Source: an uncultured Candidatus Rokubacteria bacterium
GTDB lineage: Bacteria; Methylomirabilota; Methylomirabilia; Rokubacteriales; CSP1-6
Length of the DNA: 64,000 nt
NCBI GenBank assembly: GCA_963734175.1
Contig: CAVTGC010000010.1
Location: forward strand, 252,976-316,975
Direction: 5' to 3'
This document shows, piece by piece, positions 5,068-42,950 of this stretch (its first letter is position 1; each line of letters opens with the position of its first letter). The position numbers and the translations under genes were made by a program. A model generated the notes under the pieces. The model was not told the DNA's origin. It saw only the letters and a program-made list of their open reading frames with translations, and ran no database searches.

Positions 5068-5475
5068 TCACGGATGGGTGTGTCCATGGCCTTCGCGGCC
5101 CCGAGTGGGATCGAAATACTCGCGGAGGAATGCGATCTTCCCTCCTGACGCACGCAAGAAGACGACGTACTGCTGTTGGTAGATCCGCCCTGTCGCCTTG
5201 ATCCGTCCCTTGCCCTTGACCTCCGCCACGGCGGCCTCTGGGTCGGCGAAAGCATAGACGCTGACGTCGGAAAAGCGGAAGTTCTCGACGGCCCCCACGA
5301 ACCACGCTGCGAAGTCTTCGACCTCCGCGCGTCCTGCCACGCGTGCAGGGTGGCCGAGCGCCGGCGCGAACGGGAGCTCCCACACGACATCGTCGGCGAG
5401 CAATGTCTGCCAACGTGCGTTGTCGGCGACGAGTGTCTCTAGATGCCGATGTAACAGGCTCTCGGCGAGGGTCAT
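5068..5475 (-). CDS. SnoaL-like / NTF2-like (ketosteroid-isomerase fold) protein, about 135 aa
   Basis: MTLAESLLHRHLETLVADNARWQTLLADDVVWELPF…YQQQYVVFLRASGGKIAFLREYFDP is typical of the SnoaL/limonene-epoxide-hydrolase-like superfamily. Its ATG overlaps the stop of the upstream gene (ATGA). Confidence 0.55.
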   Translation of the reverse strand: MTLAESLLHRHLETLVADNARWQTLLADDVVWELPFAPALGHPARVAGRAEVEDFAAWFVGAVENFRFSDVSVYAFADPEAAVAEVKGKGRIKATGRIYQQQYVVFLRASGGKIAFLREYFDPTRGREGHGHTHP

Positions 5476-5783
5476 GCGGCAGTCCGTCCGATCGCCGCCC
5501 AGCCCGCCACCTGCACGGCCCGCCACGGCGTCGGCTCCCAGGCGGAGCCACCGAAGACCGAGTGGGCCATCCCGGTGATATAGAACGTGGCCCGCCAGTG
5601 CCCGTCGCCGTAGGCGGTGAGCTGGAGGTCCCAGCCCTGGCGCGCCATGCCCGTCACGACCAGGCCGATGCCATTCCACGTATCGAGCCAGCGGTGCAGC
5701 AGCTGCAGCTCGGGCTCCGTGGGCTCGACCTGGAGGAAGCCAAGCGCGGTGCGGAGGACAGGGAGGCGCGGGTCAGTCGCCAA
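5472..5783 (-). CDS. Member 1 of the uncharacterised 'FLQ(L/V)xPxEPELQ' family
   Basis: MATDPRLPVLRTALGFLQVEPTEPELQLLHRWLDTWNGIGLVVTGMARQGWDLQLTAYGDGHWRATFYITGMAHSVFGGSAWEPTPWRAVQVAGW. It aligns along its whole length with ORF 8837..9292 and with the C-terminal part of ORF 63680..63967. Confidence 0.55.
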   Translation of the reverse strand: MATDPRLPVLRTALGFLQVEPTEPELQLLHRWLDTWNGIGLVVTGMARQGWDLQLTAYGDGHWRATFYITGMAHSVFGGSAWEPTPWRAVQVAGWAAIGRTAA

Positions 5784-5849
5784 TCAGCACACAGCAGAGC
5801 GCGATCGCCACGACGGTCAGGAGGCGGGCCCGAGTCATGGCGTCCGTCG

Positions 5850-7350
5850 CGCTGGGGGTCAACTCGGCGGCGCTGATCGCTCTAGCAGCCCGTGGCGGAA
5901 GTCATTGCGATGAGCCAGTTGCGGCGAGCGAGAAGGATGAGATCCCGCCGCGAGCCGGAGAGCCCGGGACGCCAAGGCGCCTCGTCAGAGTCGGGCGGAG
6001 CGCGGCGAGGAGCGAAGACAGGGTCAGCCAGAGCAGGTCCGACGGCGGACGGCGGCCCTGAAGGCCGCGCGGCGTCCCGCGTCCGAAGACGCTGCCGCAT
6101 CAGGAGCCCGAGATTGAAGGCGCCCGCGTGGACGATCAGCCGCTTGAGGATGTTGGGATGCCCGCGCAAGTGGATCCGGCGCAGCCCGCCGGTGTCATAG
6201 ACGTGCGCAAACGTCCGTTCGACGTACTCGCCGCGCCGCCGCATCAACCGCTTCCCGCGGGGGCCACCGACCCGGCGGCGATTGCCATAGACGGGTTGCT
6301 GGGCTTCCGGCTCCTTGGTCCAGCACCGGCGGCCGCGATCGGGCTCGGCGAGGTAGGCGCGGAGGCCGAGGGCCCGGAGGGTCAGCAGGGTGTCGTTGCT
6401 GTGGTAGCCCCGATCCCCGACGAGCGCCGTCGGGACGGTCGCCTGCACGGCCGCCAGCTGTTCGGCGGCCGTCAGCGTCGTCGCGAGCAGACTCGTCGTG
6501 TCGCCGACGTCCGCCCCGTGCAGGGTCACGGCGACCAGCGCGCCCGTCTCCAGATCGACGGCGTGCTCCACTTTGTGGGCGAGGTGCGTCCGGCCATCCT
6601 TCATCTGCGTGACCTTGGCATCGGGGTCCGACGGATTCACCCATTCGGCGTTGGACGTCCGCTTCTGGCGCCGACGGTCGAGACGGGCCAGCGCCTCGCG
6701 GCTCGGCGTCTTGAGGCCCGAGGCCGTCGCCAGCCGCGTGAGGAACTTCTGGTAGCTCTCTCCCGTGTCCCGCCGCACGATGCTCCGCATCGCGGCGTTG
6801 GCCTCGAGCGTGGTCGCATCCACGGCGAGCGTCTGGCCCCGGAGCAGGTGGGCCTCGACCAGGCGCTCCTGCACCCACGTGAACACGGCCTGATGCGCCT
6901 CGACGTCGATCAGGCGTCGGGTGCGCGAGATCGTCGAATGATCGGGCGCCGCCTCGTCGAGCCCCAAGCCCAGGAACTGGCGCACCGCCAGCGAGTCCGC
7001 CGCCCGCCAGGCGATCCCGCGCTCCGAGTCGAGGCCTTCGAAGTAGCCGATCAGCAACAAGCGGAAGTAGCGGCCCGGGGCGAGGCTGGGCCGGCCCATG
7101 ACCGGCGCGTAGAACGGCCGACATTGGTCCTCGACGAATCGGTCGAAGCCCGCGGCGTCGAGGATCTCATTCAGCCGCAGGTAGAACGGGTGGCCCGGCG
7201 ACACCGGCAGCTCGGTCGTGGGAATCCACAACGGCGGCTTGCTCGCTCTTGCGTTTGCCCATCGCCATGGCCCGCAGTGTACGATCTGGCGCGCCCGTGG
7301 CGATGTCCTTTCACCGACTTTCACCACGGGCTGCTAGGCCGTGATTGCCG
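5850..7350 (-). mobile_element. IS5/IS1182-family insertion sequence. Ends not mapped.
   Basis: A single transposase gene. The terminal inverted repeats could not be identified by eye. Confidence 0.4.
5882..7327 (-). CDS. IS5/IS1182-family DDE transposase, 481 aa
   Basis: The N-terminal region …LPVSPGHPFYLRLNEILDAAGF…GRPSLAPGRYFRLLLIGYFEGLDSERGIAWRAADSLAVRQFLGL…DHSTISRTRRLI is the DUF772/transposase N-domain signature of IS5/IS1182. It is followed by a DDE_Tnp_1 core. The 502-aa + strand ORF 6128..7636 is its antisense shadow. Confidence 0.8.
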   Translation of the reverse strand: MVKVGERTSPRARQIVHCGPWRWANARASKPPLWIPTTELPVSPGHPFYLRLNEILDAAGFDRFVEDQCRPFYAPVMGRPSLAPGRYFRLLLIGYFEGLDSERGIAWRAADSLAVRQFLGLGLDEAAPDHSTISRTRRLIDVEAHQAVFTWVQERLVEAHLLRGQTLAVDATTLEANAAMRSIVRRDTGESYQKFLTRLATASGLKTPSREALARLDRRRQKRTSNAEWVNPSDPDAKVTQMKDGRTHLAHKVEHAVDLETGALVAVTLHGADVGDTTSLLATTLTAAEQLAAVQATVPTALVGDRGYHSNDTLLTLRALGLRAYLAEPDRGRRCWTKEPEAQQPVYGNRRRVGGPRGKRLMRRRGEYVERTFAHVYDTGGLRRIHLRGHPNILKRLIVHAGAFNLGLLMRQRLRTRDAARPSGPPSAVGPALADPVFAPRRAPPDSDEAPWRPGLSGSRRDLILLARRNWLIAMTSATGC

Positions 7351-7634
7351 TCCGGCCATAGGTTCATGCACCTGGGATGGAGGAATACCTTCACCCCGGC
7401 CGTCAGCAGGAGTTCGACTTCGGTATCTCCGATCTCGATGGCGGAACTACAAGCCGCGCACTTGTGCGTCTCGCGGCACTGCCCGCCCAAGATGCGGGTC
7501 GGCCGGACTCTTGGCAGAACGCCACCTTCAACGAGGGTGCGGAGCCGTTCGCGCACGCTGGCGTCACTCGGCAGCGTGTCGGCACTCCCTCGGATCAAAG
7601 GCAGGCCAAGGCGGATCACGTCCGCAAATGCCAT
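7311..7634 (-). CDS. Small C-terminal zinc-ribbon protein, sub-family B
   Basis: …ERLRTLVEGGVLPRVRPTRILGGQCRETHKCAACSSAIEIGDTEVELLLTAGVKVFLHPRCMNLWPDG. It aligns with 38800..39231 (…ERLRGLVQRGVLPLTRPARVWAGPCRETHACIACGTIIGMGEMEFDVVLASAIKVFFHPKCLNLWPDAG). Confidence 0.5.
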   Translation of the reverse strand: MAFADVIRLGLPLIRGSADTLPSDASVRERLRTLVEGGVLPRVRPTRILGGQCRETHKCAACSSAIEIGDTEVELLLTAGVKVFLHPRCMNLWPDGNHGLAARGESR

Positions 7635-7785
7635 GAACGCGTTGCTGCGCTCACGGATAGCTAGGATGCGGCCTTGACGTGCGGCGCTGGCGGCGATGCG
7701 GGCAGCGGTTCTCTCAACTCACTCGGCGACGGCCATGCTCATGGGACGACCCTCCGTCAGACCGGGGAGCGTAGCACAGGTGAGG

Positions 7786-8067
7786 TCATGGCGCCTGCCG
7801 CCGGATCTCGATCCGCACGTGGGCCGGCCAGATCATGTCGCGCTCGGTATCGGGAATCCCGGGGCGCCGGATCCGGGCGGGCAGGCTCTTGCCGCCCTGG
7901 AACACCGTGGGGTGGGTCACAACCTCCCATTCGAGGCCCGCCTCGGTGAGCCGGTCGCCGACCTGGACTGCCATGGGCAGGACTGTGCGCGTGCCGTCGG
8001 CGGCCGCCGGCGTCGGGCCCGGCGTCGAGGCTGGTCGCTTCAGACGACGGGCTGGCCGATCAATCAC
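7786..8067 (-). CDS. Hypothetical protein
   Basis: ORF only. Competes with the + strand ORF 7696..8250. Confidence 0.2.
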   Translation of the reverse strand: MIDRPARRLKRPASTPGPTPAAADGTRTVLPMAVQVGDRLTEAGLEWEVVTHPTVFQGGKSLPARIRRPGIPDTERDMIWPAHVRIEIRRQAP

Positions 8068-8291
8068 CGACGAGGAACCAGAGGGCGCTGGACGCTACGA
8101 TCACGAGCGCCGCCGGGAGGAGCCACTTGGTCACGGCGTCTAGCAGCACCACGCCGCAACGCCGGCGGCCTGGGTCAGGAACGCCTCGAGGATCTTGCGC
8201 ATGGGCGGGAGGGTAACGAGGGTCAGAGCAGGCGTCAACGTCGCGTGTAGCCGACAGATCCACCACCCGCCGCGTCCGAGTCGGCGGCCCC

Positions 8292-8822
8292 CTACGCTGT
8301 GCGGGCGGCGATGAGGAGGGCAGCGACCCCTGCCACGCCAACGACGATCGGAAAGGCAAAGTCCAGTACTGCACGCACGACGACCACCGGGCCGACGGCG
8401 CCACGGTACCGGAACCGCTCTAGCCTGAAGATCTCGGGATCGTTTTTATCGAAGTCGTCCTCGCCAAGTCCCATCGCAACCATGCGCATCGCCTCGTCGT
8501 GCGTCTCTCGGGCGAGTTTCTGCATGGCCAGGTGATATTCCCATCGCCACGCCAGGGCGTCGGTCGCCGCATACGCGACAAAGGCCGAGAGGAAGTACAC
8601 CACTACGCTGGCCATCAACCACAGCAGAGCCCCGCGGCGTCCGGGCGTGAGGGTGATGCCGAAGTTCTCGATCTTCTCCGGGACAAACCCGGTCAGTGCT
8701 ACGGCCAGAGCGACGGTGCTGACACCAAGCAGCGCTCGCCGCTCCTTCCTTGTGGTCTCCGTGAGCGGGTCACGAAGAAGCACCCCGCCGCGCTCGCGTA
8801 GATCGTCGTCGAGCTCGCTCAT
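8292..8822 (-). CDS. Hypothetical integral membrane protein, 176 aa
   Basis: Several hydrophobic stretches (LLGVSTVALAVALTGFV, ALLWLMASVVVYFLSAFVAYAA, VVVVRAVLDFAFPIVVGVAGVAALLIA). Confidence 0.5.
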   Translation of the reverse strand: MSELDDDLRERGGVLLRDPLTETTRKERRALLGVSTVALAVALTGFVPEKIENFGITLTPGRRGALLWLMASVVVYFLSAFVAYAATDALAWRWEYHLAMQKLARETHDEAMRMVAMGLGEDDFDKNDPEIFRLERFRYRGAVGPVVVVRAVLDFAFPIVVGVAGVAALLIAARTA

Positions 8823-8836
8823 GCCTCGTCGAGATA

Positions 8837-9292
8837 ATGAAAAGATGCGCCGGCAAGGCCATCAAACATCACAGTTCGAGGTTACTGCGTGCGAACTGGT
8901 CCGCCGCCTCTGGTCGCACTACAGATTCCAGATCCGCCGCCCACGTGCGTGGATGGCTCGACATCGAAGTGACGACCGATCAGCGCCGCCGTAACCTCGT
9001 CGCTGCCCTCGGCTTCCTCCAGCTCAAACCGATCGAGCCGGAGCTGCAGATGCTGCATCGAGCTTTCGACAATTGGCGCGGCATTGGGGTGCTGGCCGTT
9101 GGCCTCCATCGTGTCGGCTATGACCTGGCGCTGATCCGAGACGCGGACGAGGGGTGGAGCGCCACGTTCTACATCACGGGCCGCATGCACTCGATCGTCG
9201 GTGGCTGGGCCAACGATCCGAAGCCCTGGCGAGCTGTCCAGCGGGCCGGGTGGGACGCGGTGAAGCATGCCGAGCGGTTTCTCGGATCGTGA
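8837..9292 (+). CDS. Member 2 of the '[12 protein letters not shown]' family
   Basis: …[89 protein letters not shown]…. Confidence 0.55.
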   Translation: MKRCAGKAIKHHSSRLLRANWSAASGRTTDSRSAAHVRGWLDIEVTTDQRRRNLVAALGFLQLKPIEPELQMLHRAFDNWRGIGVLAVGLHRVGYDLALIRDADEGWSATFYITGRMHSIVGGWANDPKPWRAVQRAGWDAVKHAERFLGS

Positions 9293-9917
9293 GGGCGGCG
9301 CTTCCGAAATACACCCCGATGCATCCCACGCAGGTTCGGGAGCCGTTCCACCTGCTGCCTGGATCTATGAGGAGAAAGTCGACGGCTGGCGCATCCTCGC
9401 TTACAAGGACGGACCCAGCGTCCGCCTCCTGAGCCGTAACGTTGTCGACCACTCGCGCAGGTTCCGCGAGATCGTTGCTGCGGTCGCGGCGTTCGCAGAG
9501 CCCACCCTCGTGCTCGATGGCGAAGTCGCCATCTTCGATCAGGCGATGCGGTCGCGGTTCGATCTGCTCCGGGAATCCGATCCCAGCATCATCGCGACGC
9601 CGCCGATCTACATGGCCTTCGGCGTGCTCTATCGCGCGGGCCGGGACCTTAGCCTGTCGCCCCTTCGTGAACGGCGCCCGTGTCTGGAGGAGATCGTGGC
9701 CGGGCACGACCTCGTGTTACCAGCACGCCGCCTGGCCGCCAACGGGCTGGAGGCGTGGGCCCAGGTGCTTGAGCGCGGCTACGAGGGGTACGTCGGGAAG
9801 GATGAGACGAGCCAGTACCCCGGCGGCAAGACGACGTCATGGCTCAAGGTGAAAGTGCCGGGGTGGACCGACGCCGAGGATCGTTGGAAGCGCGTGCGGA
9901 TCAGCGGCAATAAATGA
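9267..9917 (+). CDS. ATP-dependent DNA ligase adenylation-domain protein. It is truncated, with no OB-fold and a short N-terminus.
   Basis: KxDG motif I (EEKVDGWR), then …LDGEV…, …EGYVGKDETSQYPGGKTTSWLKVK, which are the ligase motifs. It stops about 25 aa after WLKVK. It overlaps the upstream gene by 26 nt. Confidence 0.6.
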   Translation: MPSGFSDREGGASEIHPDASHAGSGAVPPAAWIYEEKVDGWRILAYKDGPSVRLLSRNVVDHSRRFREIVAAVAAFAEPTLVLDGEVAIFDQAMRSRFDLLRESDPSIIATPPIYMAFGVLYRAGRDLSLSPLRERRPCLEEIVAGHDLVLPARRLAANGLEAWAQVLERGYEGYVGKDETSQYPGGKTTSWLKVKVPGWTDAEDRWKRVRISGNK

Positions 9918-10655: not shown

Positions 10656-10991
10656 TCAAACACCGGGGCCCCGCTTCGGCTCGTCCATCCGCGCAGACGG
10701 CCCGTCGGCGTCAACCGCGCAGGTGCGATGAAACAGTTCCCCGTGCGACCACTGAACAGTATCGTCCTTCTCGAACCGACGACCGCAGATACCACAAAGT
10801 TCAAGCCTGGATTCCACGACTGCCTCACCACATTTGAAGTCTAAAAAGACATAGCGAACGGAGTCAATGAATCGCAAGTATTGCGGCTTGAAAAAAACTA
10901 CCCGGGACGAACTCGTCAGCCAGTCGTCGTCAGCCGGTGGCCGAGCCCTCCACGCCCTCGCGCCCCGCCCGGGCTTCGTTCCAAGCCGCAT
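10656..10991 (-). CDS. Small Cys-rich zinc-ribbon-like protein (…LELCGICGRRFEKDDTVQWSHGELFHRTCAVDADG…)
   Basis: C-x2-C … H..C arrangement like the other zinc-ribbon families. It lies immediately upstream of the receiver fragment. Confidence 0.35.
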   Translation of the reverse strand: MRLGTKPGRGARAWRARPPADDDWLTSSSRVVFFKPQYLRFIDSVRYVFLDFKCGEAVVESRLELCGICGRRFEKDDTVQWSHGELFHRTCAVDADGPSARMDEPKRGPGV

Positions 10992-11303
10992 AGCACGGAC
11001 GGCCGATGGAAGTACACCGTCCGGCCGTCGCTGAAAAGTACTCGTACTCGACGCTTTCCGCGGGCCTATCGCAGGCGGCGCAAGGATGGGGTATTTGCGG
11101 CCCTCCTTGAGCGATCACTGTTGGGGCTCGCCGCGGCAGTAAACCAAACCGCAGCAGTATTCGGATTCGGGTGCCCAAACTGTTGCTCACAACAGTTTCT
11201 GTAGCTCCCGATTCTCAAGGCGTCAAATAGGTACGATCTAACCGCGCAGTGTAAAGCTCTGAATGTGCGAGCATAATGCTAATTGAGGCGTCGATTTGAC
11301 GAG

Positions 11304-12013: not shown

Positions 12014-12362
12014 GTCGGGACTCGAGCTCGGCGTATCTGTCATTGAACAGCGTGGCGAGGAGCCGTACCTAACTTCAATCATGAACATGGACGCCGAGAA
12101 CGACGAGGGACCGATCGCTCAGCTCTACCTGCGCGGGTTGATCTTCGCTTCGCCATTGTTGTGGAAAACGTCGTCACGCGTGGTGACCTGAAGCCCGGTC
12201 TCCGAGTCCAACTCTGCGTGCGCACCCAAGTCGCTGTTGCGGCGGGAGCTCGTGGGCACCGAGGTAGTTGCGCAGAGAATCGTTCAGCCCTCTCTGCCAA
12301 CATGAGTGAGACAGTGACCCCCTGGGAGTTTAGAGTCGAGGGCGAGGCAGGATCGGAGAGCG

Positions 12363-12761
12363 ATGAGCGCATTGGAGCAGGCCCTCGGTGGGCCGGCGAT
12401 CGAGGTGGTGGCGAAGGCGACACGGCGGCGGTTCACGTTGGAGTACAAGCGGAAGGTGGTCCGAGAGGCCGACGCCTGTAAGACACCGGGCGCGATCGGG
12501 GCGCTGCTGCGGCGGGAGGGACTGTACTCCTCGCACCTGACGACGTGGCGGGCGGCGCGGGAGCGGGGCGAGTTGGTCGGGGCGCCGAAGCAACGCGGGC
12601 CGGCGCGGCGGGTCGTCGATCCGCGGGACAAGAAACTGGCCGAGCAAGCGCGGGAGATCAGCCGGTGGCAGAAGCGTGCCGAGCGAGCTGAGGCGCTGGT
12701 GGCCCTGCAAAAACAAGTGGCGGCGTTGCTGGGAACGCCGTTGGTCGACGAGACCTCGTGA
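12363..12761 (+). CDS. IS3-family transposase OrfA (HTH)
   Basis: MSALEQALGGPAIEVVAKATRRRFTLEYKRKVVREADACKTPGAIGALLRREGLYSSHLTTWR… Its stop overlaps the orfB ATG (GTGATGG). Confidence 0.9.
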   Translation: MSALEQALGGPAIEVVAKATRRRFTLEYKRKVVREADACKTPGAIGALLRREGLYSSHLTTWRAARERGELVGAPKQRGPARRVVDPRDKKLAEQAREISRWQKRAERAEALVALQKQVAALLGTPLVDETS

Positions 12762-13768
12762 TGGCGACGGTCGCCCAGATCGGGCCACGGCTGGGCATCG
12801 CTCCCACGTGCGCGGCGCTCGGGCTGCCCCGCGCCACGTACTATCGTCGACGTCGGCCCGCGCGCGCCGCGCCACCGCGGCGGCGGTCGCCTCGGGCCCT
12901 CGGCGAGAGCGAACGCGCGGCCGTGCTCGAGCAGTTGCATACGCCGCGCTTCGTGGACCTGGCGCCGGGCGAGGTCTATGCCACCCTGCTCGACGAGGGC
13001 CGATATCTGTGTTCCGAGCGGACGATGTATCGCGTCCTGGCCGCGCACGCCGAGGTGCGGGAGCGGCGCGCTCAGCTCCGGCATCCTGTCTATGCTGCCC
13101 CGGAGCTGCTGGCCCGTCGCCCCAACGAGCTGTGGAGCTGGGACATCACCAAGCTTCTCGGGCCCGTGAAGTGGACCTACTTCTACCTCTACGTCATGCT
13201 CGACGTCTTCAGCCGGTACGTGGTCGGCTGGATGGTGGCTCATCGCGAGAGCGCGACCCTGGCTGAGCAGTTCATCCGCGAGACCTGTGCGCGCCAAGCC
13301 ATCGTGCGCGAGCAGCTCACGGTCCACGCCGATCGCGGGTCGGCGATGACCTCGAAGCCCGTCGCCCTGTTGCTCGCGGATCTCGGCGTCACCAAGACGC
13401 ATGGCCGGCCGCACGTGTCGAACGACAACCCGTTCTCCGAGGCCCAGTTCAAGACGCTGAAGTACCGCCCGGCCTTCCCGGGGCGCTTCGGGTCGATCCA
13501 GGACGCGCGGGCGCACTGCCACGTCTTCTTCCCCTGGTACAACACCGAGCACCATCACACCGGACTCGGCCTGTTGACGCCCGCCGACGTGCACCACGGT
13601 TTGGCCGAGCAGCGCATCGCGGTGCGCGCGACCGTGCTCGCCACGGCCTACACGGCGCATCCCGAGCGATTTTCTGCGGGCCTTCCGGTCCCGGCGGCGA
13701 TGCCGACCGAAGTCTGGATCAACCCCCCAACGCGCCGTGCGCTCGCGGAGGTGGCGCTCACTCACTAA
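12758..13768 (+). CDS. IS3-family transposase OrfB (rve integrase core, DDE)
   Basis: …WSWDITKLLGPVKWTYFYLYVMLDVFSRYVVGWMVAHRES…HADRGSAMTS…HGRPHVSNDNPFSEAQFKTLKYRP… The 493-aa minus-strand ORF 12284..13765 is its antisense shadow. Confidence 0.9.
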   Translation: MMATVAQIGPRLGIAPTCAALGLPRATYYRRRRPARAAPPRRRSPRALGESERAAVLEQLHTPRFVDLAPGEVYATLLDEGRYLCSERTMYRVLAAHAEVRERRAQLRHPVYAAPELLARRPNELWSWDITKLLGPVKWTYFYLYVMLDVFSRYVVGWMVAHRESATLAEQFIRETCARQAIVREQLTVHADRGSAMTSKPVALLLADLGVTKTHGRPHVSNDNPFSEAQFKTLKYRPAFPGRFGSIQDARAHCHVFFPWYNTEHHHTGLGLLTPADVHHGLAEQRIAVRATVLATAYTAHPERFSAGLPVPAAMPTEVWINPPTRRALAEVALTH

Positions 13769-13826
13769 ACTCGAGACCCGACTGTCTCATTCTTGTTGAC
13801 AGGCTCCGCAGTGCCACCATCCGCTC

Positions 13827-14222
13827 GTGATCGAATTGCCACCGGCCGACACCTTCGATCAGTTCCTAGCCCTCGCGGAGCTGGCCAGAGAGGTACGCCG
13901 GTCGGCTGAGTGGGCACGAGCGGGTCGTAGACGCTCGATCCACGGCGCGAGCGACATTGGGCAGACCGATATCGCCGGCCTCATCCAAGCCAAGCTCGCG
14001 GCTGGTCTGCTGCCTCGCGCAAGGCCAGAGAGGACGTGGGTCGGCTTTGGGTCAGGCAAGGCTTGCGACGCATGCGAGCAGTCGATCACGGGGCAGAACC
14101 GCGAGATCGAGTTCGATGACCAAGGCTTGGGCACGATCCGGCTTCATGTCCTCTGCCTGGCGATGTGGCAGATCGAACGGGTCAAGGAGACCCTTCACGG
14201 TAGCGGCGGCGCGGCGGCGTGA
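13827..14222 (+). CDS. Small C-terminal zinc-ribbon protein, sub-family A
   Basis: MIELPPADTFDQFLALAELAREVRRSAEWARAGRRRSIHGASDIGQTDIAGLIQAKLAAGLLPRARPERTWVGFGSGKACDACEQSITGQNREIEFDDQGLGTIRLHVLCLAMWQIERVK. It is about 70% identical to 42525..42950. The GTG start lies 18 bp after the IS3 right end. Confidence 0.55.
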   Translation: MIELPPADTFDQFLALAELAREVRRSAEWARAGRRRSIHGASDIGQTDIAGLIQAKLAAGLLPRARPERTWVGFGSGKACDACEQSITGQNREIEFDDQGLGTIRLHVLCLAMWQIERVKETLHGSGGAAA

Positions 14223-17531: not shown

Positions 17532-19870
17532 ATGCCGGGAGCAACGATGCTCCGATACAACGTCGCAGCGAACGCCGGTACTCGACGTGCGGTTGCCATC
17601 AGCGGCATCGTGCAGGGCGTCGGATTCCGTCCCTTCGTGCACGGGCTGGCCTGCGCCCTCGGTTTGCGGGGCTTCGTGCGGAATGCCGCGGGTGGCATTG
17701 AAATCGAAGTCGAGGGCGAAGTCGCGGCAATCGAGCGGTTCCTCGCAGAGCTCAATACTCGTAAGCCGCCGCGGGCCCGGATTGATTCGGTGTCCACGTT
17801 GCCCCGCCTCGCGCGCGGCGATGATGATTTTAGGATCGAGGCGAGCGCCGTCGACGTGCAAGGAGCCGTCTCCGTGTCGCCGGACATCGCGACGTGCGAT
17901 GACTGCCTAAGGGAGCTGTTCGATCCCGCGGACAGGCGGTATCGATACCCGTTCATCAACTGTGCGCAGTGCGGACCCCGCCTGACGATCGTCAGGACTG
18001 CTCCGTACGATCGCCAGCGTACGACCATGAGCGGGTTCGACATGTGCGCGCAGTGCCGCGCCGAGTACGATGACTCGCGCGACCGACGCTTTCACGCCGA
18101 GGCTATCGCCTGTTCGTCGTGCGGGCCGCGTCTGCGGCTCCTCGATGGTGCAGGCCGCCTCATGCACTCCCAGGATCCGCTTGCGGAGGCGATTGCCGCG
18201 CTGCGAAGCGGTGGCATTATCGCGGTGAAGGGGCTCGGAGGCTTTCACCTCGTGTGTGATGCCTATGACGTCGCTGCAGTGTCGGAGCTGCGCCGGCGTA
18301 AGCTGCGCGACGAGAAGCCGCTCGCGCTCATGGCGCGCGACCTCGCCGCGGCGGGTGAACTCGGCGAGATCTCCGACTCGGAGCGGCGGGCGCTGACGCT
18401 ACCGGCGAGGCCGATCGTGCTCTTGCGAGCACGATCGGATGCTCCGGTAGCGACCGCGGTGGCGACGGGGCTCGCGGTTCTCGGGGTCATGCTGCCGTAT
18501 ACCCCCGTTCATCACCTGATCCTGAGCGACATGCCCCATGCGGTGGTGATGACGAGCGGCAACCGCTCCGGTGAACCGCTCGTCCGCGAGGATGCGGAAG
18601 CGTCGGCCCGCCTGGCCGGCATCGCCGACGTCGTGCTGACGAACGATCGGGGGATCGAGACCCGGTGCGACGATTCGGTCGTTCGGGTCATTGGCCCTGG
18701 AATTTCATGGGTGCGACGATCGCGTGGCGAGGCCCCGCGGGGACTGTCGCTCCGCACGCCATTGGCCCGTCCCACACTGGCGCTCGGTGGCCATCTCAAG
18801 GCCGCGATCGCGCTTGGCGACGGACGGCGCGTGGTGCCCAGTCACCATCTCGGGGACCTCGACGAGTACCAGACGTATCGCGCGTACACGGACGCCATCG
18901 CACACTACCAGCGGCTGTTTCGGATCGCGCCACAACGCATCGTCCACGATCTGCATCCGGATTACGCCTCGACGCGATACGCCATCGAGCTTGCCAAGGA
19001 AACGGGTATGGAGCTGCTGGCCGTCCAGCATCATCACGCTCACATGGCGAGCTGCATGGCCGAGCATGGCTTGGCGGGGCCGGTGATCGGCGTCTGCTTC
19101 GACGGCACCGGCTGGGGCGCCGACGGCGCGATCTGGGGCGGCGAGTTCCTGGTCGGTGACGACAGCAGACTTCCGGCGCGCCGCGCATTTCAGCTACGTC
19201 GGTATGCCCGGCGGCGAGGCCGCCGTTCGCGAGCCGTGGCGCATGGCGGTGGCGCATCTCATCGCACGCCGGGGCGGCCGTCGAAACGCCCATCGCTGCG
19301 CGTCGATGCCGGACGCCGACGCACCGTGCGAGCGAATGCTCGAGCGAGGCTTCAACGCGCCGCTGACGTCGAGCGCCGGGCGGCTGTTCGATGCCGTCGC
19401 CGCGCTGGCGGGAGTCTGTGAGCGCGCCGAGCTATCGAGGGGCAGGCGGCCATGATGCTGGAGTCGCTGGCCCGCGGCGTCAGGCCGGCCGGGGCGTATC
19501 CCTTCGAGCTCGCCACCGGGTCGGATGCGCTGGTGATCGATCAGCGGCCGCTCATCCGAGCGGTCGCGGCCGACGTGCGCAAGGGCATCGGCGCCAGCCG
19601 TCATTGCCCGCCGATTCCACTCGACGATGGCCGAGGTCATCGTCGCCGTGTGCGAGCGGATCCGCGCCAGCGAGGGCGTCGATCGGTGTCGTCCTGAGCG
19701 GCGGCGTGTTCGTGAACGCCATCCTCGCGCGGAGAAGCGAGCGACGCGTTGCGAAGATCGGGGTTTCATGCCTTACCAGCACGTCAGCGTGCCCGCCAAC
19801 GACGGCGGTCTCTGCCTCGGGCAGCTCGCCATCGCGGCGGCGCGCGACGCGTCGGAGACGCGGTCATCAC
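17532..19870 (+). pseudogene. hypF: [NiFe]-hydrogenase maturation carbamoyltransferase HypF, frameshifted near 19150, 19450 and 19620
   Basis: Acylphosphatase motif (IVQGVGFRPFV), two zinc-finger pairs (CDDC…CAQCGPR ; CAQC…CSSCGPR), a YrdC-like region (IIAVKGLGGFHLVCDA), and a Kae1-like carbamoyltransferase domain. C-terminal segments (…FSYVGMPGGEAAVREPWRMAVAHL… ; …NDGGLCLGQLAIAAA) lie in other frames. Confidence 0.85.
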
Positions 19871-33806: not shown

Positions 33807-34440
33807 TCATCGTGCAGAAGCGTCCGGACGCGCTCCTGGTACCAGGGGGATCGAGTGTTCCTGACCACGCGCGTGCGGATGTGCAGTTTGCGGCCCAAAC
33901 GGCGCTTGCCAGGCATGTATGCGTACCGGGAACTCGTCGAGGCGGGCGGCCTTGCTTCCTTTGGGCGAACTACGCGGCCATGCACAGGCGTGCCGCCTAC
34001 TATGTGGACGCCGGCGTGTAGCTCGTGAACATGGCATCGACCTTCGCAATGACGAGTGCCCGCGCGAGAGCCCGAAACTGCTCAACCCGCCCCTCCAAGA
34101 AGCGGCGCTCGAAGATGACATTCCGCCCCTCGACCCACCCGGCGTCGCGAGACCCCTCGACGAAGCGTCCCTGGCCGGCGTGGCTCCAGGCACACCGTCG
34201 AGATGGCAGATTGGGGCCGGCTTCTTTGCTTGCGCATGTTGCACCGCAGCTTCGAGCGGCGCTGCGAGGTCGCCAGCCAGGGAGGTCAGCAGGATGCGGC
34301 GGCGATTCACTACTCGATCACCTGATCCGCCCGTGCTAGCAGCGAGGGCGGGATCGTCAGGCCGAGCGCCGTGGCGGTCTTTTGAGGTTGTTGACGAGTT
34401 CGAACGTCGTTGGTCCCTTGACTGGTAGATCGCCGGGTTT
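33807..34440 (-). pseudogene. Remnant of a PF04392 substrate-binding-protein tandem junction (3' end of one copy plus the Tat-signal 5' end of the next)
   Basis: 34322-34440 is a degraded copy of the …TIPPSLLARADQVIE* 3' end seen in the array at 47417-51355. It is followed directly by MNRRRILLTSLAG…. The rest of the gene is unrecognisable. Confidence 0.4.
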
Positions 34441-34563
34441 TGTCCGGCGGAAGTCTTCGATCGTGTCGTGATCGTCGTTGACCATCAACACCCGAGCAGA
34501 CACGGGCGCGGTCCTAGGTTATGTGGTTGGGGCGTGCGCAGTCGCCCGATGATACCCGCGACT

Positions 34564-36769: not shown

Positions 36770-37276
36770 GCCAATTCAGCGTGCAACCCTTCGGCCAACG
36801 GCTGCTTCATGCTCAGGCCTGGGGCGTTCAGTCGTTTTACGCGGGCCACGATCTGCTAGAGGTGATGGCATGGAGCTTCATGGCTTTGCGAGGACCGGTC
36901 GCTGCTCGATAGGGCGTTCCGAGTCTGCCGAAGCAACGTCTCCTAGAAGTCGTCGAATCTGACGCGGAGTCAAACGCGTACGCGCGGAGCCTATCGAGGA
37001 GAGCTGTGAAAAATCGAAAGCTTTCTCTCGACAGCGATCCGGCTACTATGAGCACCTAGAGAAATGGCCGATGAGCGCCAATTCCTTCAGACCGGCAAGA
37101 ACGTCGTCGCACAATCGCAGATCAGGGGCGCAAGGTGGTGGAGGTTTCCTAGCGCAGCCACACTACGTCATCGTCACCGAGGCCGAGGACAAGGCCCGAA
37201 GCAAGTAAACCCCTAAGCTCTCTCACTTGCTTCTCAGGCTGTCCTCAAGCGGCGGTGCTCAAGGTCACCTCTAGCT

Positions 37277-38444
37277 TGTCCAGACTCGAAATGGTGTTGA
37301 CACTTCCGCGGTCCCAGAGTGGTGGTGAATGAGCTCATTGTGTGGCCACGCCCCAAACGAGCGCGGCCGGGGTACGACCGCGGACGCGATAGCCTTGGTG
37401 AGGCCGGTCGTGGTTGTAGTAGCGCATGAAGCCGTCGAGGGCTCGCTGCAGCGTCGCGCGACGCGTGAAATAGCGGCGACGGAAGACGACGCGCCAGAGT
37501 TCCTGGAGAATCGTGCCCTGCAGGCGTTCGACGAAGCCGTTGGTCCAGGCATGACGCGGTTTCGTGCGCGTATGGCGGAGGCGGAGCTCGCGGCAGGCCC
37601 CATCAAAGGCGCCCTTGAATTCCGGGCCACCATCGGTGAGCACGCGCCGCACCGGCCAGCCCGCGCGCTGGAAGTGCGGCACCACGACCTCGCGCAGGAA
37701 GCGGGCGGCGGCGGCCGCGTCGTGGGCGGGCAGCAGGCCGGCCAGCCCGTAAGAGGTCGCCGCGTCGCACGCGGTGATCTGCCACACCTTGCCCACGCCT
37801 TTGAGGTTGCCGATGTAGAAGGTGTCCAGACACACCAGCTGGCCCGGCTCCGTGGCCTCGACGTGCCGCGTGCGGCCGTGACGGGCCCGCCAGAGCTTCT
37901 CCCGGGTGCGGTCCGTGAGCAGCCCCGCCGTCCGGGCGGCCTGCTGCTCGAGCACCGTCAGGCGCGCTCGGCGCGTGGCCAAACCGACTCGGCGGAGCAG
38001 CCGCTGCACGGTGCTGGGCGCCAGGCGGATCTGCCAGGTGCGCGCCAGGTAGGCCGCCAGGCGGCGACACCCCCAGGTCGCGGCGCTGATCGCAATCCCC
38101 AGCACCAGCCGTTCCACCTCCGGCGGGGTCGCCACCGGCCGCCCCGCGCCGGCGCGCTGCCGCCGGGGATGAACCCCCTCGACGCCATAGCGTTCCAGCC
38201 GTTGGCGCCAGCGGTAAAACAGGGTCCGGGAGATGCCCAGCTCGCGGCAGACGGCGCTGACGTTGCCGAGCACCTGCGCCCGCTCGATGACGCGCAGGCG
38301 CATTCCGTGTACGCTCTCGTCGAGGGTCATCGGTCCGTCCTCCCACAGTGGTTCCCTTGGCGGGGTAAGCACTCTGGGAAAGATAGAGCCGATGGCCTTC
38401 TTGTTCGTTCACGGCAAGTGTCAACACTATTTCGAGTCCGGACA
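37277..38444 (-). mobile_element. IS481-family insertion sequence, copy A, 1168 bp
   Basis: Terminal inverted repeats TGTCCaGACTCGAAATgGTGTTGACAC… Flanked by the 8-bp direct repeat CTCTAGCT (37269-37276 and 38445-38452). Confidence 0.9.
37335..38372 (-). CDS. IS481-family transposase (HTH plus rve/DDE integrase core), 345 aa
   Basis: …LFYRWRQRLERYGVEGVHPRRQRAG…QLVCLDTFYIGNLKGVGKVWQITACDAATS…VLTDGGPEFKG…HTRTKPRHAWTNGFVERLQGTI…YNHDRPHQGY…. Confidence 0.9.
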   Translation of the reverse strand: MLTPPREPLWEDGPMTLDESVHGMRLRVIERAQVLGNVSAVCRELGISRTLFYRWRQRLERYGVEGVHPRRQRAGAGRPVATPPEVERLVLGIAISAATWGCRRLAAYLARTWQIRLAPSTVQRLLRRVGLATRRARLTVLEQQAARTAGLLTDRTREKLWRARHGRTRHVEATEPGQLVCLDTFYIGNLKGVGKVWQITACDAATSYGLAGLLPAHDAAAAARFLREVVVPHFQRAGWPVRRVLTDGGPEFKGAFDGACRELRLRHTRTKPRHAWTNGFVERLQGTILQELWRVVFRRRYFTRRATLQRALDGFMRYYNHDRPHQGYRVRGRTPAALVWGVATQ

Positions 38445-38534
38445 CTCTAGCTCGCATGATGCCCAGCTTTGCTGGTCCGAAGTGAGCGCCAGCCGGACCC
38501 AGCCGGATCATCATCATGGATGAGCAGGCGCGCA

Positions 38535-38834
38535 CTAGCCGACTCGTATAAACGTCTCATCGCACGCATGGCAGATCCAGATCCACTCCTCCGGGCTGCC
38601 CCCAGCCCCCGTGTGAGAAACATCACTAGACATGCAGTCGGAGTTCGGGCAGCGACTCTTCATGGTACGGCGCTGAGGCTTGTCCTGGTCCATCGGTTCC
38701 CCTATCACCGGCTGCCCTCTCTCCGCACCGACGCGGAGGTCGAAATTGTGGGTCATCGTCGTTTCGGCCTTCGGCTTCCTCCGCCGACCACCTCCGACGT
38801 TAGCTAGCCGCAGCGACTCCGTCCAGCCCTGCAT
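38535..38834 (-). CDS. Small 4-Cys zinc-ribbon-like protein (…SRCPNSDC…WIWICHACDETFIRVG)
   Basis: ORF only. It sits directly downstream of a sub-family B gene. Confidence 0.3.
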   Translation of the reverse strand: MQGWTESLRLANVGGGRRRKPKAETTMTHNFDLRVGAERGQPVIGEPMDQDKPQRRTMKSRCPNSDCMSSDVSHTGAGGSPEEWIWICHACDETFIRVG

Positions 38835-39231
38835 CGGGCCAGAGGTTCAGGCACTTGGGATGGAAGAACACCTTGATGGCGGACGCGAGGACGACGTCGA
38901 ACTCCATCTCGCCCATGCCAATGATCGTGCCGCAGGCAATGCAGGCGTGCGTCTCACGACAGGGACCGGCCCACACGCGCGCCGGCCGGGTTAGCGGAAG
39001 AACACCGCGCTGGACGAGCCCCCGAAGCCTTTCCAGGACCGCGGCTTTATTGGGAGGCGTCTCTCCACCGCCGCGGATCAAGCGTTGCCGAGTGAGGACG
39101 ACCTTGGTGAGCGCAAGCAGCCACTCGCTGCGGTCAAGGACGGAGAGACTGCGGCTGCAGTGGGCAAGGCTTCTGAGTCGTCGGGTAGCAGCTCGCCCGA
39201 CTCGTTCCTCGACTGAGGCGCTCTGGGTCAT
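38800..39231 (-). CDS. Small C-terminal zinc-ribbon protein, sub-family B
   Basis: Internal Met (MTQSASVEERVGRAATRRL…) of ORF 38800..39405. Its C-terminus aligns with 7311..7634. Confidence 0.5.
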   Translation of the reverse strand: MTQSASVEERVGRAATRRLRSLAHCSRSLSVLDRSEWLLALTKVVLTRQRLIRGGGETPPNKAAVLERLRGLVQRGVLPLTRPARVWAGPCRETHACIACGTIIGMGEMEFDVVLASAIKVFFHPKCLNLWPDAGLDGVAAAS

Positions 39232-39736
39232 GCGCCGATTCCTCCAGAGGCAACGCAGAGTAGCAAAAACGGCCGCGAGCGTAGGATCGTCTGCCCCCCT
39301 CCGGACGCCACACCGCTCTTCGCCGCCGCCGGCTCGACGCGCTGACGACCCCGGCTCCCCGACCTGGCGATCAAACCACTTCTTCGATCCGATCAGCCGC
39401 GACATCCGGTTCGAGCAGCCTGTTGAACGGAAGCGGCCAGGGCGGGAGGTGCGTCGGCGGCGTCAGCCTGAGAGGCTCGCGACTCGCCTTTCTGCAGTAA
39501 TGACGATGCTGGTGCCATGTCGCGCGATGCTGCCCGGATGCTGCGAGTATGCCCACGTCTCTGGCCCAGCAGTACCATGGCATCGCAGCCGCCATCTTAC
39601 GCGGTCAGCTATCCGGTGCGAGGTGGCGGTTCACTCTGACTCGTGAAACGCGATCCATGCGCCCTCTCTGCCAACATGAGTGAGACAGTGACCCCCTGGG
39701 AGTTTAGAGTCGAGGGCGAGGCAGGATCGGAGAGCG

Positions 39737-40135
39737 ATGAGCGCATTGGAGCAGGCCCTCGGTGGGCCGGCGATCGAGGTGGTGGCGAAGGCGACACGGC
39801 GGCGGTTCACGTTGGAGTACAAGCGGAAGGTGGTCCGAGAGGCCGACGCCTGTAAGACACCGGGCGCGATCGGGGCGCTGCTGCGGCGGGAGGGACTGTA
39901 CTCCTCGCACCTGACGACGTGGCGGGCGGCGCGGGAGCGGGGCGAGTTGGTCGGGGCGCCGAAGCAACGCGGGCCGGCGCGGCGGGTCGTCGATCCGCGG
40001 GACAAGAAACTGGCCGAGCAAGCGCGGGAGATCAGCCGGTGGCAGAAGCGTGCCGAGCGAGCTGAGGCGCTGGTGGCCCTGCAAAAACAAGTGGCGGCGT
40101 TGCTGGGAACGCCGTTGGTCGACGAGACCTCGTGA
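39737..40135 (+). CDS. IS3-family transposase OrfA
   Basis: Identical to 12363..12761. Confidence 0.9.
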   Translation: MSALEQALGGPAIEVVAKATRRRFTLEYKRKVVREADACKTPGAIGALLRREGLYSSHLTTWRAARERGELVGAPKQRGPARRVVDPRDKKLAEQAREISRWQKRAERAEALVALQKQVAALLGTPLVDETS

Positions 40136-41142
40136 TGGCGACGGTCGCCCAGATCGGGCCACGGCTGGGCATCGCTCCCACGTGCGCGGCGCTCGGGCTG
40201 CCCCGCGCCACGTACTATCGTCGACGTCGGCCCGCGCGCGCCGCGCCACCGCGGCGGCGGTCGCCTCGGGCCCTCGGCGAGAGCGAACGCGCGGCCGTGC
40301 TCGAGCAGTTGCATACGCCGCGCTTCGTGGACCTGGCGCCGGGCGAGGTCTATGCCACCCTGCTCGACGAGGGCCGATATCTGTGTTCCGAGCGGACGAT
40401 GTATCGCGTCCTGGCCGCGCACGCCGAGGTGCGGGAGCGGCGCGCTCAGCTCCGGCATCCTGTCTATGCTGCCCCGGAGCTGCTGGCCCGTCGCCCCAAC
40501 GAGCTGTGGAGCTGGGACATCACCAAGCTTCTCGGGCCCGTGAAGTGGACCTACTTCTACCTCTACGTCATGCTCGACGTCTTCAGCCGGTACGTGGTCG
40601 GCTGGATGGTGGCTCATCGCGAGAGCGCGACCCTGGCTGAGCAGTTCATCCGCGAGACCTGTGCGCGCCAAGCCATCGTGCGCGAGCAGCTCACGGTCCA
40701 CGCCGATCGCGGGTCGGCGATGACCTCGAAGCCCGTCGCCCTGTTGCTCGCGGATCTCGGCGTCACCAAGACGCATGGCCGGCCGCACGTGTCGAACGAC
40801 AACCCGTTCTCCGAGGCCCAGTTCAAGACGCTGAAGTACCGCCCGGCCTTCCCGGGGCGCTTCGGGTCGATCCAGGACGCGCGGGCGCACTGCCACGTCT
40901 TCTTCCCCTGGTACAACACCGAGCACCATCACACCGGACTCGGCCTGTTGACGCCCGCCGACGTGCACCACGGTTTGGCCGAGCAGCGCATCGCGGTGCG
41001 CGCGACCGTGCTCGCCACGGCCTACACGGCGCATCCCGAGCGATTTTCTGCGGGCCTTCCGGTCCCGGCGGCGATGCCGACCGAAGTCTGGATCAACCCC
41101 CCAACGCGCCGTGCGCTCGCGGAGGTGGCGCTCACTCACTAA
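40132..41142 (+). CDS. IS3-family transposase OrfB
   Basis: Identical to 12758..13768. Confidence 0.9.
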   Translation: MMATVAQIGPRLGIAPTCAALGLPRATYYRRRRPARAAPPRRRSPRALGESERAAVLEQLHTPRFVDLAPGEVYATLLDEGRYLCSERTMYRVLAAHAEVRERRAQLRHPVYAAPELLARRPNELWSWDITKLLGPVKWTYFYLYVMLDVFSRYVVGWMVAHRESATLAEQFIRETCARQAIVREQLTVHADRGSAMTSKPVALLLADLGVTKTHGRPHVSNDNPFSEAQFKTLKYRPAFPGRFGSIQDARAHCHVFFPWYNTEHHHTGLGLLTPADVHHGLAEQRIAVRATVLATAYTAHPERFSAGLPVPAAMPTEVWINPPTRRALAEVALTH

Positions 41143-41224
41143 ACTCGAGACCCGACTGTCTCATTCTTGTTGACAGGCTCCGCGCGCCTGAACCGACAAC
41201 TCCGCGTGGACTGAGTCGGCTACT

Positions 41225-41706: not shown

Positions 41707-42132
41707 TTGGTCAGGCTACCACGTGGTTCAAGCCGACGCTCCAGTGAGGCCGCGTCCACGGAAGTGAGATGCCGGCGAGGCAGGAGCGGGTTCCAGGGCA
41801 AGTGTGGCCGGCATCCCGCCCCGCTGCTATCCTTTCAGGTGCCTCCCTCAGGGCCTCCGACAGGCGCATCAGGCGTCGGACCCTTCTGGTATCTGGCGTG
41901 GCCCTTCATCCCCCAGAGGGGCAAGCTGCCAAGCCGGCGCCCTGACCGGACCTGGGGCGGGCCAGGAGTCGGTGCCCCCTGCGCCGTCTGCGAACTACCC
42001 GTCACCCCGGATGAGATGGAGTTCGAGATCCAGTTCGCTCGCGACGGCGACAACCCAGGGTTGGACAAGTTCCACGTCCACATCCGCTGCTTCGCCGCGT
42101 GGGAGTTTGAGCGCCGGAGTGCCCAGACATGA
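41707..42132 (+). CDS. Small C-terminal zinc-ribbon protein related to sub-family A. The true start is probably internal.
   Basis: …GAPCAVCELPVTPDEMEFEIQFARDGDNPGLDKFHVHIRCFAAWEFERRS aligns with …GKACDACEQSITGQNREIEFDDQGLGTIRLHVLCLAMWQIERVK. Confidence 0.45.
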   Translation: MVRLPRGSSRRSSEAASTEVRCRRGRSGFQGKCGRHPAPLLSFQVPPSGPPTGASGVGPFWYLAWPFIPQRGKLPSRRPDRTWGGPGVGAPCAVCELPVTPDEMEFEIQFARDGDNPGLDKFHVHIRCFAAWEFERRSAQT

Positions 42133-42524: not shown

Positions 42525-42950
42525 CTACGTCGCCGCGCCGCCGTTGCCCTTGAAAACTTGCTTGACGCGTTCGCTCTGCCACATCGCCAGGCATTGGGCA
42601 TGAAGCCGGATCGTGCCCAGGCCCGGGTCATCGAACTGGTACTCGCGGTCCTGTATCGTGACCGGCTGGTCGCAGGCATCGCACGCCTTGCCTGACCCGC
42701 AGCCGACCCACATCTTCTCGGGCCGGTCGCGCGGCAGCAGACCTGCAGTGAACTTGGCTTGGATGGTGCCAAGAAGATTGGTCTGGCCTATGTCGCTGGC
42801 ACCATGGATCGGGCGCCTACGACCGCCTCGTGACCACTCGGCCGACCGGCGCATATCCCTGGCGACGCGAACGAGCATCGGGGCTTGTCCGAAGATATCG
42901 GTCGGTGGCAAGTCGATCACGGGCCGCGATAGTGGCACCGCGCGACTCAA
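42525..42950 (-). CDS. Small C-terminal zinc-ribbon protein, sub-family A
   Basis: MSRAVPLSRPVIDLPPTDIFGQAPMLVRVARDMRRSAEWSRGGRRRPIHGASDIGQTNLLGTIQAKFTAGLLPRDRPEKMWVGCGSGKACDACDQPVTIQDREYQFDDPGLGTIRLHAQCLAMWQSERVK. Confidence 0.55.
   Translation of the reverse strand: MSRAVPLSRPVIDLPPTDIFGQAPMLVRVARDMRRSAEWSRGGRRRPIHGASDIGQTNLLGTIQAKFTAGLLPRDRPEKMWVGCGSGKACDACDQPVTIQDREYQFDDPGLGTIRLHAQCLAMWQSERVKQVFKGNGGAAT

Follow-up and report, generated by a model that had tools for sequence, protein, structure and literature searches.

A large unnamed family of ~100-residue proteins with intact and decayed copies in Candidatus Rokubacteria genomes

We analysed a 64,000-nucleotide stretch of DNA (hereafter the window) from an uncultured Candidatus Rokubacteria bacterium (assembly GCA_963734175.1, contig CAVTGC010000010.1, positions 252,976 to 316,975 of the forward strand), in which an initial annotation, made from the sequence alone, had noticed three similar open reading frames (ORFs). 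All three belong to one large, unnamed family of ~100-residue proteins, which among the genomes searched is essentially restricted to Rokubacteria/Methylomirabilota-type soil bacteria. Rokubacteria abound in soil, are uncultured and have very large genomes. We tentatively read the family as an accessory or conflict-type protein (an immunity- or antitoxin-like neutraliser or a protective binder) and not as a pathway enzyme or a dedicated partner of a kinase or substrate-binding protein (SBP); this reading is possible rather than probable. The members in the window are given below; L-numbers (L003, L024 and so on) denote family-centred loci from related metagenome-assembled genomes (MAGs).

5472-5783 (-): family member 1, intact, 103 aa, TTG start (profile positions 2-100, E 2e-53)
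8969-9292 (+): family member 2, intact, 107 aa from the probable GTG at 8969 (profile positions 2-101, E 6e-45)
63625-63811 (-): family member 3, pseudogene remnant, GTG at 63811-63809 (profile positions 3-40; DNA alignment with L024 and L047)

The window ORFs belong to a large family absent from domain libraries

Members 1 (5472-5783 (-)) and 2 (originally called as 8837-9292 (+)) share 55 of 98 residues (56%) in an ungapped alignment (E 4e-38), in which the shared sequence blocks quoted in the initial annotation were found. When both were searched by tblastn against the whole window, the sole extra match was at 63695-63826 (-), involving 32-46 N-terminal residues; for member 3, 46 residues align at 61% identity (E 9e-16). 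The claim that three ORFs align over about 90 aa thus stands for members 1 and 2 but not for member 3. No match to the family was obtained in Pfam (E<=0.1), NCBIfam, PADLOC, PHROGs or the PDB sequences, by which placement in a known family was ruled out; the proposal of a genuine uncharacterised family is borne out, since the curated libraries searched assign it to no well-characterised one.

A word-indexed search returned 359 proteins, all of 75-160 aa and all named 'hypothetical', and a Pfam domain was annotated in none of the 120 homologues listed. An exhaustive profile search of 1.84 billion cluster representatives (clustered at 50% identity) gave 2,696 matches at E<=1e-3 and 1,279 at E<=1e-10, so that a family first described as having three members is far larger; all 150 representatives listed from this search are short proteins. 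Domain fusions offered no clue to function: the longest representatives (173-196 aa) are run-on ORFs, and a single NUDIX match reflects read-through into the next gene. Nothing on the family was found in the Rokubacteria literature searched, and an exact look-up of two public-collection proteins (P0001 and P0002) for genome context returned no record.

A scan covering 185,579 species, each represented by a single genome, detected 106 coding stretches, nearly all in MAGs labelled Candidatus Rokubacteria, Rokuibacteriota or Methylomirabilota. The few matches labelled as other phyla all sit on short contigs of 2-7 kb and may result from mis-binning. Among the loci kept, single MAGs (CAWHBD01, QHSU01 and CAVRLO01) hold 9-12 family pieces each; with at least 9-12 copies in related genomes, three paralogs within 64 kb, which had been considered unusual, are not. 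The sequence family is new to all libraries searched, its fold class (see below) is familiar, and lineage-specific expanded hypothetical families are common. The family is absent from every domain database searched; naming it and giving it a profile and a fold assignment would allow thousands of 'hypothetical' genes to be annotated.

Intact copies are under purifying selection and many others have decayed

Across 16 pairwise comparisons of family copies, the ratio of nonsynonymous to synonymous substitution rates (dN/dS) was 0.08-0.40; intact copies are under purifying selection. Grouping of the profile matches gave 104 copies, 63 of them intact, 8 broken by frameshifts or stops, 31 truncated and 2 at contig edges. 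Decayed copies made up 38% in short-read and long-read MAGs alike, which rules out sequencing error as the source of the broken copies. Paralogues in the same genome are 39-91% identical, and their best matches are frequently in other genomes; they are therefore old paralogues with orthologues elsewhere, not the product of a recent burst. Recent transposition of a mobile cassette was likewise ruled out, as neither near-identical copies in the same genome nor a common upstream element was present; in an alignment of upstream regions, similarity between copies starts at the start codon. This mix of intact and decayed, diverged paralogues is a birth-and-death pattern.

Predicted fold and conserved residues

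An AlphaFold2 model built from a 48-sequence alignment (predicted local distance difference test score, pLDDT, 88; predicted template-modelling score, pTM, 0.75) has the topology H-H-H-E-E-E-H, with helices at residues 6-16, 24-33, 36-48 and 86-102 and strands at 51-57, 63-69 and 79-83. The predicted fold consists of two added N-terminal helices packed on an alpha-beta-beta-beta-alpha core of the type seen in double-stranded RNA-binding domains (dsRBDs). Foldseek searches of the PDB and BFVD gave no match at E<=0.001. Ribosome hibernation factors (HPF/RaiA/pY; Rv1738) appeared with a non-significant E of 0.53 and show no sequence similarity to the family, and the HPF order, beta-alpha-beta-beta-beta-alpha, is unlike that of the family.

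In the alignment, W63, A65, F67 and W87 are invariant and alternate with polar residues. These near-invariant polar residues are D52, Q54 and T56 in strand 1, R64 and T66 in strand 2, E83 in strand 3 and H74-S75 in a loop. The proteins are basic (median isoelectric point, pI, 9.8) and rich in tryptophan (6.4%). We take them to be cytoplasmic, as no signal peptide was recognised when the N-termini were read by eye.

Surroundings of the three members in the window

The features that adjoin the three members, together with two further small families, designated B and C, that recur beside family genes, are as follows.

5068-5475 (-): SnoaL_2-type gene, 135 aa (PF12680, E 2e-12); its ATG overlaps the member 1 stop
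5882-7337 (-): IS5/IS1182-like element, 1,456 bp, with a 481-aa DDE transposase (DUF772 and DDE_Tnp_1)
7311-7634 (-): family C, small CxxC...H..C protein; recurrent family neighbour with paralogues in the window and in family loci
7786-8067 (-): family B, small basic all-beta protein; recurrent family neighbour
9319-9917 (+): ATP-dependent ligase, adenylation domain only, frameshifted near 9355 (DNA_ligase_A_M, E 2e-25)
10656-10991 (-): family C ORF
10930-11190 (-): family C ORF
13956-14180 (+): family C ORF
38809-39117 (-): family C ORF
41914-42114 (+): family C ORF
42567-42791 (-): family C ORF
63531-63624 (-): putative 3' fragment of a tyrosine-recombinase gene (...HADIQTTTLYTRLTQGDLEKV...*), by frame reading, abutting truncated member 3
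63812-64000 (-): histidine-kinase C-terminus, continuing beyond the window edge (HATPase_c positions 80-110, E 6e-4)

The member 1 protein is identical to the public-collection entry P0001, and the SnoaL_2 product (5068-5475 (-)) to entry P0122. The ATGA overlap between the member 1 stop and the SnoaL start is real (4 nt; PF12680, E 2e-12), but the coupling does not extend to a conserved partnership, being one among many downstream arrangements. In L027, a SnoaL gene 72% identical to that of the window lies upstream of the family member, the order being SBP, SnoaL, family gene. On the minus strand of the window the order is family B, family C, the IS5-like element, member 1 and SnoaL. The element has 22-nt terminal inverted repeats (5882-5903 and 7316-7337, 91% complementary, starting CTAG) and is inserted in the last codons of the family C gene 7311-7634, ~100 nt upstream of member 1. 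An 18-codon ORF, MTRARLLTVVAIALCCVL*, at 5785-5838 (-) has a signal-peptide-like start and stops one base ahead of the member 1 TTG; it could be a leader ORF or what is left of a truncated gene for an exported protein.

Member 2 had been delimited as 8837-9292. Its homology with member 1 starts at residue 45 of this 151-aa mechanical ORF (ATG 8837), the start candidates are GTG 8969 and GTG 8945, and the 43 codons back to ATG 8837 are unmatched in other members; judged from these alignments, GTG 8969 is the probable start, and ATG 8837 is not the beginning of the homologous part. The downstream ligase had been described as truncated and overlapping member 2. Its N-terminus, MHPTQVREPFHLLPG (ATG 9319), lies 27 nt past the member 2 stop in a different frame from the long ORF, to which it is linked by a frameshift near 9355; it is because of this frameshift that the 216-aa ligase ORF begins within member 2, and with the real start at 9319 there is no true overlap. 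The ligase genes in L068 (330-869) and L079 (1505-2120) likewise comprise the adenylation domain only and have the same end (WLKVKVPGWT...), and therefore the missing OB domain is the normal architecture of the group rather than a truncation. Such OB-less ligase pieces lie within ~1 kb of a family gene in 11 loci.

For member 3, the DNA of 63560-64000 (-) was aligned with the homologous loci L024 and L047 from Rokubacteria MAGs. The reading frame is kept for ~38 codons and is followed by a 2-nt deletion, which creates the stop at 63680, and then by a 1-nt insertion; homology ends past the W-R-A codons near 63625 (codon ~65). As was noted initially, the HATPase_c C-terminus at the window edge is in frame with member 3. 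The kinase 3' end there closely matches at the DNA level that of L024, in which the kinase TGA stop and the family gene's GTG start overlap (GTGA). Compared with L024, the kinase tail in the window is 31 nt longer, and the extra bases shift the frame, so that the kinase runs through the GTG into the frame of member 3. A natural kinase-family fusion, one of two explanations offered in the initial annotation, is thus not upheld: the L024 kinase stops at the start codon of the family gene, and in the window the 31-nt difference precedes a broken family part. Member 3 is a pseudogene, and its kinase fusion is no functional architecture. From its C-terminal H...Y motif, the fragment at 63531-63624 (-) is probably the end of a tyrosine recombinase. 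In L015, L047 and L050 a recombinase gene of like orientation is found downstream of the family gene, and a deletion between the two genes would yield the arrangement seen in the window. As re-annotated, the window has two intact family genes and one pseudogene; the kinase fusion is not genuine, and the OB-less ligase is frameshifted. The recombinase fragment is closely followed downstream, at 61081-62945 (-), by an HTH_3 plus Peptidase_M78 (ImmA/IrrE-type) gene and an unannotated 247-aa gene, which suggests the remnant of an integrated element beside member 3.

Families B and C travel with the family gene

Family B was found in 18 family-centred loci and directly adjoins the family gene in five: it follows in L032 (6317-6562), L039 (6306-6551), L044 (4613-4855) and L080 (1620-1901) and precedes in L056 (5756-5953). 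It has an N-terminal KRKGK-type basic tail and a highly conserved ~60-residue core (M.IQ.GDRFT...EWEVVTHP...GGKSLRARIRRPG.PE.E..M.WPAHV.V.I.R), its model is all-beta with four strands (pLDDT 71), and none of its 53 homologues carries a Pfam domain. Family C, also lacking a significant Pfam match, is represented in the window by seven paralogous ORFs of ~80-110 aa; it converges on the family gene, the two stops abutting, in L013, L018, L026, L036 and L074, and forms tandem arrays in L059 and L078. The islets that hold the family gene repeatedly contain families B and C, ligase pieces and integrases. No conserved two-gene operon with a cognate partner emerged: B adjoins in five loci and C in about five, in variable order and strand, and most intact copies have unrelated neighbours, with neither B nor C adjoining.

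Start contexts and gene neighbourhoods

The family gene has no Shine-Dalgarno-type leader of its own, and three kinds of start context were distinguished. The first is coupling to the stop of the preceding gene, with spacers of 0-8 nt or 4-nt overlaps. Of 51 intact copies, 13 are immediately preceded on their own strand by a gene of the SBP family PF04392 (ABC_sub_bind), joined as TAG-3 nt-GTG (...ATC GAA TAG CGC GTG CTC GAC CAA); an anti-sigma-like gene in L033 is joined to its family gene by this junction as well. The second is a TTGACG-N17/18-TAnnnT promoter whose end lies 6-7 nt upstream of the start codon, a spacing that implies a leaderless mRNA; the strict pattern occurs in 4 of 51 copies as against 0.17% of control start-like codons, and a TACA(C/G)T box stands at the same distance in four more copies. 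Derivation of these promoters from the SBP 3' end was considered and is unsupported by alignment. In the third, seen in six or seven MAGs, the gene keeps a stable position, flanked by a B3_4-domain gene and a pyridine-nucleotide-disulphide oxidoreductase gene.

At the commonest junction, the upstream TAG, one codon (CGC or CCC) and the family GTG share a frame, such that read-through of a single stop would fuse both proteins (L013, L023, L026, L030, L033, L035, L043, L046, L051 and L059). The 1- or 2-nt spacers in L025 and L053 argue that this in-frame TAG is incidental.

Neighbours are diverse. In the Pfam censuses, each of which lists its 25 commonest families, 48 families are represented in the 55 nearest credible flanking ORFs of intact copies (ABC_sub_bind 8, Beta-lactamase 3, Response_reg 3), and the wider flanks of copy-rich loci contain 96 families among 102 ORFs, mostly housekeeping (MreB, ClpP, trigger factor, SelA), with a few integrated-element markers (Phage_integrase, DUF3987, DUF932 and LigD_Prim-Pol) among them. 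The upstream genes read in 35 loci encode SBPs, kinases, regulators, anti-sigma-like proteins, B3_4 proteins and enzymes. Downstream genes coupled by a 4-nt overlap are equally varied by Pfam (SnoaL in the window, ApbA and a PF04392 gene in other loci), and two more we take, from their sequences, to encode putative T5orf172-like and PD-(D/E)XK-like proteins. The commonest neighbour is not a fixed partner: an intact family gene stands behind a decayed SBP gene in L013, L023, L035, L046, L051, L053 and L059, and the reverse, a decayed family gene with an intact SBP gene ahead of it, is seen in L008, L049, L060 and L069. The family gene and the PF04392 SBP gene decay independently.

Interpretation and alternative explanations

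The near absence of restriction in neighbours and the survival of the gene where its commonest neighbour decays together point to a self-sufficient, dispensable binding module acting in trans, and these observations underlie our tentative preference for an accessory or conflict-type role. The protein would be a stand-alone binding module, dispensable locus by locus. Its interaction site would be formed by D52, Q54, T56, R64, T66 and E83 together with loop residues H74-S75; the first six are predicted to occupy the open face of the sheet, a placement that rests on the secondary-structure string and the alignment, not on coordinates. The family resembles the orphan immunity repertoires, or polyimmunity loci, reportedly associated with polymorphic toxin systems, in being small, cytoplasmic and strongly diversified, with many paralogues per genome and frequent decay, and in clustering with small unnamed families and tyrosine recombinases. 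Features of such a repertoire are seen in the 9-12 pieces per MAG, in paralogues 39-91% identical and in the presence of B, C and integrases in the same loci. If the birth-and-death pattern reflects a role in defence, immunity or toxin-antitoxin function, it would point to a lineage-specific conflict system. The more specific proposal that the family, B and C together form a hitherto unrecognised conflict system peculiar to Rokubacteria, either a repertoire of protective binders or a new set of toxin/antitoxin-like proteins, is distinctly unlikely; its genes would lie dispersed in small islets among housekeeping genes, with birth and death renewing them.

Besides the indirect placement of the conserved residues, several observations weigh against a conflict-type role. 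Syntenic copies in L006, L007, L009, L011, L012, L019 and probably L010 are 85-96% identical and under purifying selection, with one copy per MAG among the loci kept, and look more like housekeeping or regulatory genes than like a conflict gene. No cognate toxin or target gene was found beside any copy, and no toxin family is among the 25 commonest that each census lists, although a rarer one may have escaped notice; polyimmunity loci differ in this respect, no toxin gene or fragment having been seen upstream of any family copy in the 35 loci read or in the same censuses, and also in that the family has no match to a Pfam immunity family and in that some copies hold stable syntenic positions. 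Viral contigs (IMG/VR) and plasmids (PLSDB) contained no relatives, which is weak evidence as both collections are poor in the Rokubacteria lineage; on the same searches, with the same limit, an origin as phage or plasmid cargo was rejected. The enrichment of signalling neighbours is real, with PF04392 genes upstream of 13 of 51 intact copies and with a kinase, response regulators and an anti-sigma-like gene tightly coupled. The stable syntenic copy and the excess of sensor-gene neighbours keep two alternatives close, a signalling accessory and a nucleic-acid-binding regulator.

As a signalling accessory, which we consider somewhat unlikely, the gene would be the last cistron of sensor operons (kinase, response regulator, PF04392) and its product a cytoplasmic connector or adaptor, with one paralogue per module. 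Apart from the PF04392 genes, which also form the commonest flanking family, this account can draw on the overlap of the kinase stop with the family start in L024, a layout that also underlies member 3 of the window, on response-regulator genes directly upstream (L003) or downstream (L022, L029 and L037), and on the anti-sigma-like gene coupled by a PF04392-type junction in L033; were it correct, it would bear on the workings of the expanded PF04392/kinase modules in Rokubacteria. However, the family and SBP genes decay independently, more than half of the intact copies have unrelated neighbours (adenylosuccinate synthetase, ApbA, beta-lactamase, ECH, NYN), and sensor genes are very abundant in the loci, inflating chance adjacency. 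The SBPs carry signal peptides and are presumably exported whereas the family protein appears to lack one, and direct contact between them is therefore unlikely. The kinase-regulator-SBP operon of the window itself (47420-54325, with four SBP genes) contains no family gene. Unlikely, too, is a small nucleic-acid-binding regulator, that is, a very divergent dsRBD-type module that would bind structured RNA (or DNA) and act post-transcriptionally on the operons to which it is attached. The alpha-beta-beta-beta-alpha fold is common to the family model and dsRBDs (PF00035; e.g. RDE-4 2lts, ADAR2 2l3j, R2D2 8kfp), the pI is 9.8, and the Ala-rich, Arg-bearing C-terminal helix (WRAVQRAAW.AL) aligns with the dsRBD segment KAEQAAAEQAL in hhalign. 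Heterogeneous neighbours are typical of local regulators, and some are nucleic-acid-related (B3_4, NYN, NFACT-type, ligase, PD-(D/E)XK-like and T5orf172-like). Against this, hhalign of the family profile gave a probability of 1.9% with the E. coli RNase III dsRBD and 0.6% with a 67-sequence dsRBD profile, and with no Pfam match at E<=0.1 true dsRBD homology was ruled out at the sequence level. dsRBDs contact RNA through a polar helix 1, a GPxH loop and a KKxAK motif at the start of helix 2. In the family alignment, the helix 1 equivalent (W.G.GL.A.GM.RQG) is hydrophobic, glycine-rich and probably buried by the two additional N-terminal helices, helix 2 starts P-W-R-A-V-Q-R without KKxAK, and many members carry a G-D-G-H loop with spacing similar to that of GPxH. 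Among the representatives examined, the family proteins, unlike dsRBDs, stand alone in every case, with no fusion to RNase III or another catalytic domain. Decay of 38% is also high for a regulator family.

Very improbable is a toxin role in a toxin-antitoxin-like module, in which the protein would act as a small basic HicA/RelE-like RNase and be neutralised by family B or C. The family shares with HicA-type toxins a small, basic, stand-alone protein with a dsRBD-like fold and a conserved His, encoded in multiple copies in variable islets; size, charge and topology (helices, three-stranded sheet, helix) suit small RNase toxins, the near-invariant H74, S75, E83, R64 and T66 supply candidate conserved His, Glu, Arg and Thr, and the genes are multi-copy, lie in islets and are prone to decay, with family B directly after or before the family gene in the five loci named above. 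HicA, RelE, ParE and YoeB profiles gave no match in Pfam or NCBIfam, PADLOC was empty, and HicA3 appeared only non-significantly in Foldseek (E 1.8). The family is also longer (~100 aa as against ~60 for HicA), has no HicB-like partner, most copies being partnerless, and has its conserved His in the beta2-beta3 loop. The conserved His of HicA lies in the beta1-beta2 region. Most intact copies have no adjoining B or C, and a stand-alone toxin would be lethal; it is because most copies stand alone that this role is unlikely, and the order and strand of the three genes differ between loci. Finally, a non-functional repeat or gene-calling artefact is barely credible. It could be suspected from the 38% of copies that are fragments and from a window rich in insertion sequences and gene fragments, but dN/dS is 0.08-0.40, the G+C content at third codon positions (GC3) of member 1 is 0.90, the 48-sequence model is confident, length is kept across thousands of sequences and homology between paralogues sets in precisely at the start codon; the results on selection and structure effectively refute this explanation.

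Other features of the window

Rfam and tRNA scans of the window were empty. Further features are listed below.

12287-13809: IS3-type copy, 1,523 bp, 100% identical to the copy at 39661-41183
39661-41183: IS3-type copy, as above
37266-38451: rve-transposase element, ~1,180 bp, one of three copies 99.4-99.6% identical
44819-46004: second copy of this element
59806-60985: third copy of this element
46032-47275: further rve element
47420-54325 (-): kinase-regulator-SBP run, with a GAF-GAF-GAF histidine kinase (834 aa), a response regulator and four tandem PF04392 genes
17532-19421 (+): HypF-like carbamoyltransferase gene, 629 aa

No ABC permease or ATPase gene was seen in the run at 47420-54325 (-), and insertion sequences come after its last SBP gene; degenerate SBP fragments lie at 34024-34443 (-). 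The HypF-like protein matches the second Kae1-like subdomain only at positions 1-37 of 241, and its gene (17532-19421 (+)) is possibly cut off at the 3' end.

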